Part shown: in pieces, positions 28,603 through 30,433 of the stretch
Position numbering within the stretch: the stretch's first letter is position 1
How the letters are laid out: each line of letters begins with the position of its first letter
DNA from: Candidatus Undinarchaeota archaeon
Lineage (GTDB): Archaea; SpSt-1190; JASMDC01
Length of the DNA stretch: 64,000 nt
NCBI GenBank assembly: GCA_964519305.1
Contig: CAZFHY010000018.1
Location: forward strand, 1 to 64,000
Reading direction: 5' to 3'
Made by a program: the position numbers and the translations under genes
The notes under the pieces: model-generated
Told to the model about the DNA's origin: nothing
Seen by the model: the letters and a program-made list of their open reading frames with translations, nothing else
Databases searched by the model: none

Positions 28603-29988
28603 TCACATCTGTTTCGCAATGAGCCGGTCCAGTTCGAGGATGAAGGCCTCAAGGACCTCCTCGTCGATGTAGGCCCCTGCTGCGATATCGTGGCCCCCGG
28701 ACTGGCCTCCCCAGCGCTCGACAGCACCGCTTAGCGCTGCTGCGAGGTCGACGCCCGCACGGACCATACGCTGTGTGGTGCGCGCCGAGAGCTTGATCCG
28801 TCCGCCCGAGTCGCGGGCCGCGGCAAGGATTACGCGCTCGTGGTCTACCATACGCGAGCCCAGGCCCATACCGGCGATGATGCCGACAACGGTAGGTGAG
28901 ATGGTCTCGGACTCGAACAGCTGGACATAGCGGCCGATGGGTGTCGCGCCCTTCTCACGCAGCTCGTCGAGGCCGGTACGAAGCTGCAGGCGGTGATAAC
29001 GGAGCATAGCGCTCGCTTTTGCGTAATAACCCTCTTCCTGCAGGCAGACGCGAACACCGACGGCGGCAAGGCCCCAACGGCCGCAGGCGTTGAGGAGGGT
29101 TGAGTGTTCTGTGGCGTCGCGCATTTCTGTGCCCTTACGCCGCGTTGGGAGGACGTAGTACTCCTTGACCAGGGCCTCGATGCCCCACTGCGGAACGCGA
29201 CGTTCGATGCAGAACCTGACCAGGGCGTCGCCAAGCTTGATCCGGTCCTCTTGCGAGAGGTCGTGATAGGTGAGCGCCCGGTCGTCCTCATCACGCGTGG
29301 GGATGCCCTCGGCATCAAGGAACGTGCGACAGGCGTCAACATCGTTGGAAAGTCCCGGGATGTACGGAGAGGACGCGTAGGAGAGCAGGACGGCTAATGG
29401 TCGCGTTTCGCGGCCGAAGAACGATATCCCACGTGTTGGTTCGACCGTGCCGTCCTTCTCACCGTCATCGACAGGGATACGGTTCATAGCCTCGAGTCGG
29501 CCTGTACGACGGTCCTGCATGTCGCCTACGGCACCTACGATGGCTATTGGGGCGGTCTCTCTCAGACCGGCCTCCCTGGCCACTAAGTAGGCCACAGTTG
29601 ACCCCGAGCACTGAGAACCGCCGTCCACGCCGAAAAGCTGGGGATTGAGGTGCACTCCGTCGAGATCTACACCCGTCATGGGATGGTGATGGTCGAGCAC
29701 TACTGCAGGGATGCCGAGTTTGGCGATAAGATCGAGCTGACCCGAGCCAAGATCGACGAACACGGCGAGGTCACGGTCCTTGGCGGCCCGTTCCACCTCG
29801 GGAAGCGTCTCTGCCGCGAGCTGGCGAAGGTGGACGCACTTCGGGTCCGTGCCGAATGAACGGAGAGAGTTGACAGCGATGGCCGCGGAGGTTATACCGT
29901 CGGCGTCGATGTGGCTTACCACGAGCGGGTTCTTGGCATTCTCCATTGCAGAGAGCGCCTCGCGGACCCGTGCGTCACGTGACTCCAT
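28603..29988 (-). CDS. Archaeal RecJ-like / GAN (Cdc45-like) DHH exonuclease
   Basis: SHIDADG, DLGSG, LDHH, GAVGDMQ, TLLNACGR, GGHDIAAG. Confidence 0.92.
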   Translation of the reverse strand: MESRDARVREALSAMENAKNPLVVSHIDADGITSAAIAVNSLRSFGTDPKCVHLRQLAAETLPEVERAAKDRDLAVFVDLGSGQLDLIAKLGIPAVVLDHHHPMTGVDLDGVHLNPQLFGVDGGSQCSGSTVAYLVAREAGLRETAPIAIVGAVGDMQDRRTGRLEAMNRIPVDDGEKDGTVEPTRGISFFGRETRPLAVLLSYASSPYIPGLSNDVDACRTFLDAEGIPTRDEDDRALTYHDLSQEDRIKLGDALVRFCIERRVPQWGIEALVKEYYVLPTRRKGTEMRDATEHSTLLNACGRWGLAAVGVRVCLQEEGYYAKASAMLRYHRLQLRTGLDELREKGATPIGRYVQLFESETISPTVVGIIAGMGLGSRMVDHERVILAAARDSGGRIKLSARTTQRMVRAGVDLAAALSGAVERWGGQSGGHDIAAGAYIDEEVLEAFILELDRLIAKQM

Positions 29989-30080
29989 GATGGTACCTTG
30001 TGAACGATCGGTTATACCCGTTCGCCCCTACTGGGCGCGGTATGCAAACCTATTTAAGGAATATGCGAACACGGGAGGAA

Positions 30081-30207
30081 GCGGGGGTACCCGAGCTGGC
30101 CAAAGGGGCCGGACTTAAGATCCGGTGGCTTAGGGCCTTCACGGGTTCGAAACCCGCGCCCCCGCACGTACGTGGGAGCAAGAGCGAAAGTCCCGTCCCC
30201 CGCACCA
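30081..30207 (+). tRNA. tRNA-Leu(UAA) with T-loop intron 30152-30190 (position 59/60) and encoded CCA
   Basis: Acceptor GCGGGGG/CCCCCGC, anticodon arm CCGGA-CTTAAGA-TCCGG, long variable arm. Splicing yields ACGGG-TTCGAAT-CCCGT followed by CCCCCGC-A-CCA. Confidence 0.9.
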
Positions 30208-30209
30208 AT

Positions 30210-30283
30210 GCCCCGATAGCTCAGCTGGCCAGAGCGCTTCCTTGGTAAGGAAGAAGTCCCGGATTCGAATTCCGGTCGGGGCT
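30210..30283 (+). tRNA. tRNA-Thr(GGU)
   Basis: GCCCCGA/TCGGGGC acceptor, CTTCC-TTGGTAA-GGAAG, CCGGA-TTCGAAT-TCCGG. Confidence 0.96.
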
Positions 30284-30289
30284 CTTACC

Positions 30290-30298
30290 TTTTTTTTT
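30290..30298 (+). terminator. Oligo-T terminator of the tRNA pair
   Basis: T9 run just after tRNA-Thr. Confidence 0.7.
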
Positions 30299-30433
30299 AC
30301 CGGTCTAGGCTTTACGGCATGCGATAATGGTTGTATATACAACTTATGTTAAACAGTGATAATCCTAGCTTGACTAGTAATTCTTAGGACCGGTAGATGC
30401 CGGGCCACGGAGCCCTCCCCCAGGGTGTCTTGA

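Follow-up and report, generated by a model that had tools for sequence, protein, structure and literature searches.

A predicted T-loop intron in the tRNA-Leu(UAA) gene of an Undinarchaeota-related archaeon begins with a near-copy of the tRNA 3′ end

Results and Discussion

The tRNA-Leu(UAA) gene and its predicted splice motif

The window analyzed here, a 64,000-nucleotide (nt) stretch of contig CAZFHY010000018.1 from the Candidatus Undinarchaeota archaeon assembly GCA_964519305.1 (genome G000), contains a tRNA-Leu(UAA) gene in which an earlier note on this DNA had recognized an intron at T-loop position 59/60 whose first nucleotides imitate the 3′ end of the tRNA. All the features described in that note were present between positions 30081 and 30207 (Table 1). 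The gene reads GCGGGGG..., followed by the UAA anticodon arm, a long variable arm, ACGGG-TTCGAA, the 39 nt ACCCGCGCCCCCGCACGTACGTGGGAGCAAGAGCGAAAG and finally TCCCGT-CCCCCGC-A-CCA. The 5′ exon comprises the acceptor 5′ strand, the D arm, the anticodon and variable arms, the T-stem 5′ strand and T-loop nt 54-59, and the 3′ exon (TCCCGTCCCCCGCA) comprises U60, the T-stem 3′ strand, the acceptor 3′ strand and the discriminator A. With its encoded CCA, this 3′ exon is the same as the 3′ end of the intronless tRNA-Leu(UAG) and tRNA-Leu(GAG) genes. The note had held that excision of the 39 nt restores the T arm, the acceptor stem and the CCA, and when they were removed in silico ARAGORN indeed returned an 88-nt tRNA-Leu(taa) with every stem perfect, i.e., a 5-bp T stem (ACGGG/CCCGT), the loop TTCGAAT, an acceptor stem paired at 7/7 positions, the discriminator A and the CCA. 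The spliced junction joins TTCGAA to TCCCGT, and the restored 3′ part, CACGGGTTCGAATCCCGTCCCCCGCACCA, matches the intronless tRNA-Leu(UAG) of the same genome letter for letter.

The bulge-helix-bulge pairing proposed in the earlier note was also correct in sequence, with the qualification that the motif is relaxed. The T stem provides the outer helix (GGG 30143-30145 with CCC 30192-30194, plus two further pairs outside, 5 bp in all). The central helix is the 4-bp TTCG/CGAA helix, with 3-nt bulges AA^A and AG^U on opposite strands and cuts after the second base of each bulge. The strict helix-bulge-helix-bulge-helix form (hBHBh′) was not reached, because the inner helix consists of the single pair C30153-G30184. 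In the constrained fold the 5′ cut site sits inside a 5-nt internal loop, and the 3′ bulge is clean and of 3 nt. Since the 5′ bulge is closed by a single C-G pair, the motif is of the relaxed, helix-bulge-helix-like (hBH-like) type, which is a recognized class of substrates of the splicing endonuclease EndA (PMC3239211, PMC6379350). A motif scan of the whole 3.63-Mb genome (a central helix of 4 bp, an outer one of 2 bp or more, an inner one of 1 bp or more, and introns of 11-130 nt) gave 1,001,295 candidates, each of which was spliced in silico and given to ARAGORN. Of the candidates at this locus, 30152-30190 alone was read as a tRNA that spans the junction. The combination of the splice motif with the restored perfect cloverleaf is far beyond chance, and this single-copy gene is very probably split by a 39-nt EndA-type intron at 59/60 that, despite its relaxed motif, is spliced to a perfect tRNA.

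Table 1. Features of the tRNA-Leu(UAA) locus (numbering of the window) and the other T-loop introns (numbering of the contigs named)
Feature	Position	Strand	Basis	Remarks
A/T-rich box TATTTAAGG	30051..30059	+	read from sequence	putative TATA-like promoter of the tRNA-Leu/tRNA-Thr pair
5′ exon of tRNA-Leu(UAA)	30081..30151	+	ARAGORN and Rfam calls, spliced cloverleaf	
Central helix, 5′ strand TTCG (T54-G57)	30146..30149	+	sequence, motif scan	5′ bulge AAA 30150-30152, cut after 30151
Intron, 39 nt, T-loop position 59/60	30152..30190	+	removal gives perfect tRNA	sequence ACCCGCGCCCCCGCACGTACGTGGGAGCAAGAGCGAAAG
Decoy ACCCGCGCCCCCGCA	30152..30166	+	alignment to 3′ exon	resembles T-stem 3′ strand, acceptor 3′ strand and discriminator
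Intron-internal hairpin GC.CCCGC / GUGGG.GC	30158..30179	+	centroid and minimum-energy folds	loop 30166-30171
Central helix, 3′ strand CGAA (30185-30188), and 3′ bulge AGU (30189-30191)	30185..30191	+	sequence, constrained fold	cut after 30190
3′ exon and genome-encoded CCA (30205-30207)	30191..30207	+	spliced cloverleaf	
tRNA-Thr(GGU)	30210..30284	+	ARAGORN call	Rfam 66.3 bits
Run of nine T after tRNA-Thr	30290..30298	+	sequence	
tRNA-Leu(CAG), 59/60 intron of 33 nt	intron C8:41199-41231, gene G000:C8:41128-41248		motif scan and ARAGORN	
tRNA-Leu(CAA), 59/60 intron of 23 nt	intron C8:45622-45644, gene G000:C8:45552-45660		motif scan and ARAGORN	
tRNA-Ser(UGA), 59/60 intron of 32 nt	intron C8:36249-36280, gene G000:C8:36179-36298		motif scan and ARAGORN	
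tRNA-Gln(UUG), 59/60 intron of 31 nt	intron C1:59011-59041, gene G000:C1:58994-59100	minus	motif scan and ARAGORN	
Introns of tRNA-Leu(CAG) (47 nt) and tRNA-His(GUG) (41 nt) in a distant archaeon	G031:C5, locus L023, 1454-1500 (Leu-CAG) and 135-175 (His-GUG)	minus		end GAAAG/GAAAA before TCCC

T-loop introns in other tRNA genes

The same scan revealed introns at 59/60 in tRNA-Leu(CAG), tRNA-Leu(CAA), tRNA-Ser(UGA) and tRNA-Gln(UUG). Neither ARAGORN nor Rfam detected another copy of any of these four tRNAs above cut-off in the genome, with sub-threshold Rfam matches at two loci. As these four isoacceptors occur only as intron-bearing genes, the cell must splice at 59/60. The minimum-energy fold of the T arm plus intron was exactly the strict motif in Leu-CAG and Leu-CAA, and in Ser-UGA and Gln-UUG the motif lay 1-2 kcal/mol above the minimum-energy fold. 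All five T-loop introns end in YGRR, and in total the genome has roughly 15 intron-bearing tRNAs.

The small-genome relatives of the same phylum have an intronless tRNA-Leu(UAA), as judged by ARAGORN, and a distant archaeon (G031, which shares only the domain, 1.2 Mb) carries 59/60-type introns in tRNA-Leu(CAG) and tRNA-His(GUG), without decoys. The pattern GGTTCRAAN{15,45}GRAAGTCC, run on 17 genomes, matched only in G000 (3), in the sister species G001 (3) and in a further genome, G003 (1). None of the matches was verified outside the genus, a weak blank given that the pattern sees 3/5 of the T-loop introns of G000. The match in G003 is not a tRNA, and a reversed control pattern also matches in that genome.

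A separate case concerns an intron elsewhere in a tRNA. At G000:C1:443066-443172 ARAGORN calls a tRNA-Thr(cgt) with an odd intron. If 443098-443129 is taken out (32 nt, interrupting the anticodon stem near 30/31), the result is a clean tRNA-Ile(GAU), which the genome otherwise lacks, and a tRNA-Thr(CGU) is already present on contig C5, so that the annotation appears to misname Ile-GAU as Thr-CGU.

The exons are conserved and the introns vary except where they are paired

The relatives of the gene were sought by a 20-nt exact scan with the end of the 5′ exon, which retrieved one genome record, a G001-type metagenome-assembled genome (MAG), and two metagenome contigs. The comparison therefore covers one other species of the genus, G001, and two metagenome contigs that are identical to G001 across the gene. 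Between G000 and G001 the tRNA-Leu(UAA) exons showed 0/85 differences and the intron 5/39 (p = 0.0026), i.e., all five differences within the gene fall in the intron, the 5′ exon being 100% identical and the 3′ exon with its CCA free of differences. Three of the five intron changes lie in the hairpin stem and keep or add pairs (C-G to U-G, G-U to G-C and A.C to A-U). G001 retains each of the five T-loop introns. When the five genes were pooled, 2/414 exon and 19/158 intron positions differed (Fisher p = 1.3e-9), the flanks differed at 29/247 positions, and the 3′ exons at 0/75 (p = 5.6e-4 against the introns). In addition, the inner helix of the Leu-CAA intron has undergone a double change from G-C to A-U in G001. 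Conserved exons and introns that vary except where they are paired were thus found both for Leu-UAA and for the pooled genes.

Contigs from four further marine or estuary DNA runs showed the G001 type plus at least one more type. Among the differences listed, the intron-spanning contigs vary at 30163, 30167, 30170, 30171, 30173, 30181 and 30183 in the intron and at 30208 in the spacer, and two 138-nt contigs each carry one further difference at a position that was not given. In all the variants seen, TTCG (30146-30149) and 30185-30191 were invariant. One natural variant, 30183 A>G, lengthens the inner helix to 2 bp. No joint that left out the intron turned up in the four metagenome DNA runs, and no intron-less or decoy-less allele occurred among the relatives found. 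A search for RNA runs covering positions 29900-30400 gave none.

The splicing enzymes of the host

The host encodes both a splicing endonuclease and an RtcB-type ligase. A single EndA gene was detected, a 193-aa open reading frame (ORF) at G000:C6:63800-64378 on the minus strand (PF01974, 100.6 bits; PF02778, 40.4 bits), and RtcB is present with 589.5 bits to PF01139. The best solved relative of the EndA is the Methanocaldococcus jannaschii homotetramer (1a79). Between its catalytic Tyr and His the protein carries a 6-residue basic insertion, in the segment VRPRKGRRSVQEH, which falls in a gap against 1a79 and aligns without gaps to the alpha subunit of Nanoarchaeum equitans (3iey_A). EndAs of broad specificity have an extra loop (L1/CSL, L2/ASL or L3) that holds a conserved Lys close to the active site. 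Kaneta et al. (2018, PMC5829648) describe an 'L3' loop in the C-terminal region that is specific to Nanoarchaea and ARMAN-2. They also report this loop from alpha4-type EndAs of several DPANN lineages, where it is associated with a larger number of disrupted tRNA genes. Judged by its position and its alignment to the N. equitans subunit, the insertion fits the description and is a candidate L3 loop. The host resembles these DPANN lineages in having a single alpha-type EndA, an insertion in the C-terminal catalytic domain and many disrupted tRNA genes, the activity of the enzyme being predicted.

How tRNA finders read the unspliced gene

The earlier note had warned that the unspliced RNA may mislead tRNA finders. 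The warning held in that ARAGORN (30081-30167) and Rfam (30081-30166) both called the unspliced gene, and both took the first CCCCCGCA, which lies within the intron, as its 3′ end. In the Rfam alignment the T stem of this reading contains a non-standard pair and an inserted base, and its 40.2 bits are the lowest score of the 42 tRNAs of the genome above the Rfam cut-off (compared with 57.5 bits for Leu-UAG and 47.4 bits for Leu-GAG, its intronless paralogues). It did not hold as a special property of the decoy, since ARAGORN also called the unspliced gene with 828/5000 shuffled intron interiors and with 3270/20000 random genome interiors, because the G-rich acceptor strand pairs easily. The finder call was therefore discarded as a significance test of the decoy, for which it is uninformative when 16% of the shuffled or random interiors do likewise, and misleading a tRNA finder is not evidence of design.

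The decoy at the start of the intron

Aligned with the 14-nt 3′ exon, TCCCGTCCCCCGCA, the initial 15 nt of the intron, ACCCGCGCCCCCGCA, show 12 identities, one mismatch and one gap, with the 8-mer CCCCCGCA included. The near-copy reported in the earlier note is therefore present, although the likeness is only moderately beyond chance: the alignment score was reached by 23/5000 mononucleotide shuffles, by 41/5000 dinucleotide shuffles and by 156/40000 random 39-mers of the genome. The likeness is real, in register and moderately improbable (p ~0.004-0.008), and it was noticed post hoc. The other four T-loop introns showed no unusual likeness to their own 3′ exons. An in-register complement to the acceptor strand at 7/7 positions, with G-U allowed, was found in 4223/400000 random 39-mers. 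No CCA follows the decoy; CCA follows the true 3′ exon. The hairpin inside the intron pairs most of the acceptor-like strand of the decoy. Among the variants seen the decoy is altered at 1/15 positions, by a change that keeps G.U pairing, but this conservation gives no specific support for a function, because the hairpin, or mere youth, fits it equally well.

Integration at tRNA-Leu 3′ ends

Archaeal integrases are known to make direct repeats of tRNA 3′ ends, as with the 44-bp tRNA-Arg repeat of SSV1 and the pNOB8 type (PMC3293823), and the tRNA-Leu(UAA) locus was compared with what such an event leaves behind. Its two direct copies, CGAAA-CCCG-CG-CCCCCGCA and CGAAAGT-CCCG-T-CCCCCGCA, are 18 nt apart, the repeat is imperfect, and no integrated element with an integrase accompanies it. 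The CGAA left boundary of the copies is not independent evidence, because the splice motif demands CGAA and all five introns end in YGRR. In Pfam searches, neither an integrase nor a mobile gene turned up in the roughly 5 kb that flank the locus on each side, nor across about 24-39.6 kb of the window, where three ORFs were without a family. The neighboring ORFs encode an M20 peptidase, a HAD hydrolase, a DHH/RecJ-like protein, a diphthamide synthase, an M14 peptidase, Nre and a GH31 glycosidase. By eye, the 18-nt spacer has no likeness to the flanks of the orphan core described below.

A tRNA-Leu 3′ end with the marks of integration does exist in this genome. The four PF00589 matches of the genome all lie on contigs other than that of tRNA-Leu(UAA), and one of them is a tyrosine integrase immediately 3′ of the intronless tRNA-Leu(GAG) (G000:C29:16499-18133). 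An exact 21-nt tRNA-Leu 3′ core (CGAA...CCA, starting from T-loop C56) occurs as an orphan, without a tRNA body, at C30:17332-17352 on the minus strand. The core is flanked by the 14-nt motif TTTAATGGCAATTT, which comes after it on C29 and before it on C30. Because of the orphan core, the integrase and the presence of TTTAATGGCAATTT at both places, the tRNA-Leu 3′ end can be regarded as a live integration core elsewhere in the genome, and the features on C29 and C30 are probably parts of one integrated element that is split over two contigs. The ORFs beside the orphan core gave no Pfam or PHROG match. A DDE transposase lies at the end of C30. The intronless tRNA-Glu(UUC) and tRNA-Cys(GCA) are each followed at once, on their own strand, by another PF00589 integrase (G000:C6:6092-7202 and C17:10599-11691), so that 3/4 of the integrase matches of the genome adjoin tRNA genes.

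An intron at 59/60 splits the 21-nt core into 4+17 in three Leu genes, and the core is intact in the two intronless ones. An integrase was found at 1/2 of the Leu genes with an intact core and at 0/3 of the split ones. This tally is far too small to test the idea, put forward by Randau and Soll and summarized in PMC4090602, that introns shield tRNA genes from integration.

Weighing the explanations

We propose that in the precursor the T stem would act as the outer helix and UUCG (T54-G57) would pair with the CGAA near the intron's end, which gives the central helix. The single alpha-type EndA, with its Nanoarchaeum-like basic loop, would cut the AA^A and AG^U sites, and RtcB would join the exons into a perfect tRNA with an encoded CCA, the same intron design being used in four other tRNAs of the organism. 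The decoy would be a by-product of the history of the intron, most likely of a local duplication of the segment from the T loop to the 3′ end; it is largely tucked into the intron hairpin, and we do not read it as a proven functional device. An intron of this kind is already known, since 59/60 introns have been described in ARMAN-2 and Crenarchaeota.

Several observations weigh against this account. Nearest-neighbor energies do not clearly favor the splice-competent fold: the T arm plus intron reaches -18.7 kcal/mol both as the decoy hairpin and as the splice motif, and the whole-precursor ensembles have -58.6 kcal/mol with the true 3′ end and -56.1 kcal/mol with the decoy. A thermodynamic ranking of the two folds was accordingly given up, as they are 0-2.5 kcal/mol apart and the program wrongly folds the D arm onto the T arm. 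As the 5′ bulge has no real closing helix, cleavage would need an enzyme of broad specificity, and an older view, quoted in PMC5829648, holds that alpha4 EndAs cut strict motifs only. No second EndA subunit was found with PF01974 (at E up to 10), PF02778 or the alpha protein itself, searches that a very divergent beta subunit could escape. Finally, the 3′ exon of Leu-UAA taken alone is too short for significance (0/14 vs 5/39, p = 0.31).

If there were no splicing, the working tRNA would be the imperfect 30081-30166 form and the downstream TCCCGTCCCCCGCACCA a dead direct repeat, i.e., a scar of an attachment-site (att) or other duplication. ARAGORN and Rfam do accept this form above cut-off, the decoy pairs with the acceptor strand at 7/7 positions, and orphan tRNA-Leu 3′ ends exist in the genome. 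This reading is nevertheless barely credible, since the unspliced T stem is defective and its score the lowest in the genome, the CCA follows the 3′ exon and not the decoy, and the supposedly dead copy is perfect and does not vary, adjoins a complete splice motif and lies 2 nt from the next tRNA; moreover, the genome encodes four other essential isoacceptors solely as genes with an intron at this position. A different question is whether the intron is real but the decoy a coincidence, with a C-rich hairpin strand in a 60% G+C genome facing a G-rich acceptor strand, and neither a duplication nor a function behind it. The shuffles and random 39-mers reach the score and the complementarity often enough for this, considering that the likeness was noticed among roughly 15 intron-bearing tRNAs, and 16% of interiors receive an ARAGORN call. 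The four sibling introns lack any resemblance, and the G001 substitutions in the stem preserve the hairpin. On the other hand, the likeness runs in register from the first base of the intron, spans the T-stem strand, the acceptor strand and the discriminator, includes an uninterrupted 8-mer, shows strict Watson-Crick pairing at 7/7 positions, and has its p ~0.004-0.008 before the register is considered, so that we regard coincidence as a serious possibility, though short of an even chance.

Birth of the intron from a duplication of the segment from the T loop to the 3′ end, either by replication slippage or by att duplication and loss of the element, with the first copy decayed to the decoy, is a somewhat less likely but still plausible account. 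As TTCGAA is self-complementary, such a duplication would itself create the central helix, with CGAA of the second copy paired to TTCG of the first; the T stem would complete the bulge-helix-bulge, and splicing could then rescue the true 3′ end. The two direct copies 18 nt apart, the orphan core that starts at the same T-loop base C56, the integrase beside tRNA-Leu(GAG) with TTTAATGGCAATTT at both places, and a published model of tRNA intron gain via the integration of mobile elements (Sugahara et al. 2012, PMC3293823) all point in this direction. No mobile genes lie near the locus, however, the spacer and the sequences around the orphan core do not look alike by eye, the motif calls for CGAA in the second copy regardless, and the four sibling introns are without a copy; the two species and the few metagenome variants are all intron-bearing. 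In its boldest form, which we consider improbable, the Leu-UAA intron would be a young fossil of intron birth, in which a duplicated att core made its own bulge-helix-bulge and the damaged first copy is spliced out. If so, this would be a general mechanism for the de novo gain of 59/60 introns, which would explain their recurrence in five tRNAs here and in distant archaea, and the decoy would in addition provide an inbuilt rival fold, to be neutralized by the intron hairpin. That the decoy is functional, as a kinetic folding switch or quality control before EndA or as a break of the att core against integrases, seems very unlikely. As a switch, the decoy, being transcribed first, could pair with the 5′ acceptor strand and would have to be displaced, or kept in the intron hairpin, for EndA to act. 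The transcript up to 30166 does fold with the decoy on the acceptor strand (-45.0 kcal/mol) and the rival folds have nearly the same energy, one decoy position in 15 has changed with G.U pairing kept, and the two intronless Leu genes, of which one has an integrase, keep the att-like core whole, the core being split in three without an integrase nearby. But the conservation is not significant and the hairpin accounts for it just as well, the integrase counts are uninformative, any 59/60 intron splits the core, and the four siblings work without a decoy.

Comparison with known T-loop introns

Position 59/60 is among the non-canonical intron positions (20/21 to 53/54, 56/57 and 59/60) listed in PMC4090602 for Crenarchaeota/Thermoproteales and Nanoarchaeota. 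The earlier note had placed such introns mainly in Thermoproteales and in some ARMAN and DPANN archaea, and the host, which belongs to a DPANN-labelled lineage, fits this distribution. The closest case described is the 59/60 intron in the pre-tRNA-Cys(GCA) of ARMAN-2 (Candidatus Micrarchaeum acidiphilum), which has a relaxed hBH motif and is cut in vitro by an epsilon2 EndA (PMC3239211). Both introns lie in the T loop of a DPANN host and have a relaxed motif, with the outer helix, the 3′ bulge and the central helix intact and the 5′ side loose. They differ in that Leu-UAA is a class II tRNA, that a single alpha-type EndA of about 190 aa is present instead of a three-unit epsilon2 enzyme, and that the start of the intron copies the 3′ exon; in addition, cleavage was seen in vitro in ARMAN-2, whereas splicing of Leu-UAA is predicted from DNA. 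The pre-tRNA-Pro(GGG) of ARMAN-2 has two T-loop introns, at 53/54 and 59/60, with strict hBHBh′ motifs (PMC3239211). It likewise uses the T stem as outer helix, and the Leu-CAG and Leu-CAA introns share its strict motif, but each gene here has one intron and the Leu-UAA motif is relaxed.

The crenarchaeal and nanoarchaeal introns described in PMC4090602, PMC4033280 and PMC6379350 resemble those found here in having a transplantable bulge-helix-bulge outside the anticodon loop and an EndA with an extra loop. Unlike them, the present introns occur in a marine, 3.6-Mb, Undinarchaeales-labelled genus, and the five of them are not near-identical by eye. With respect to integration, the locus has the direct repeat of a tRNA 3′ end that integrases leave, and a real instance occurs in the same genome at tRNA-Leu(GAG), with an integrase and the orphan 21-nt core. 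In contrast to the integration case published in PMC3293823, where the intron is at 24/25 and came with attP, the Leu-UAA copies are 18 nt apart and imperfect, and no element is present.

The reading of the gene as intron-bearing is correct and of use to annotation, its novelty being modest. Standard annotation gives Leu-UAA a wrong 3′ end and misses Leu-CAG, Leu-CAA, Ser-UGA and Gln-UUG entirely, and since it misses, or appears to misname, intron-bearing tRNAs, the tRNA counts for this lineage are underestimated. The finding adds a marine, large-genome relative of Undinarchaeota to the users of T-loop introns, and provides five natural substrates whose motifs range from strict to relaxed, for a single-subunit EndA that carries a Nanoarchaeum-like loop. 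With such a set, the published idea that the loop, and not the subunit architecture, sets the breadth of substrates becomes testable. A copy of the 3′ end inside an intron, in a genome that uses the same end as an integration core, is also a small but concrete lead on the origin of non-canonical introns.

Flanking features and the host genome

The tRNA-Thr(GGU) gene starts 2 nt past the CCA of tRNA-Leu, and from this spacing the two are probably co-transcribed. In archaea the TATA element lies a short distance upstream of the transcription start, and the A/T-rich box TATTTAAGG, which is centered about 26 nt upstream of the start of tRNA-Leu and kept in the sister species, is a putative promoter by this position. 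Oligo-T runs act as terminators in archaea, and the nine-T run behind tRNA-Thr is likely the transcription stop. The tRNA-Leu(CAG) and tRNA-Val(CAC) genes on C8 are similarly packed, 4 nt apart. A weak Rfam match to YrlA over both tRNAs (22.6 bits, cut-off 69) was set aside as tRNA-likeness only, and a role of the intron as a C/D-box guide RNA was dropped, since it has 39 nt and, by eye, no box motifs.

The host genome itself is unusual for its phylum. It measures 3.63 Mb at 59.6% G+C and is 99.8% complete, against 0.6-1.2 Mb in the 15 further genomes of the phylum examined, and the published Undinarchaeota MAGs average 0.66 Mbp according to PMC7414124. The genus is thus a five-fold larger, G+C-rich one inside or beside a lineage known for tiny genomes.

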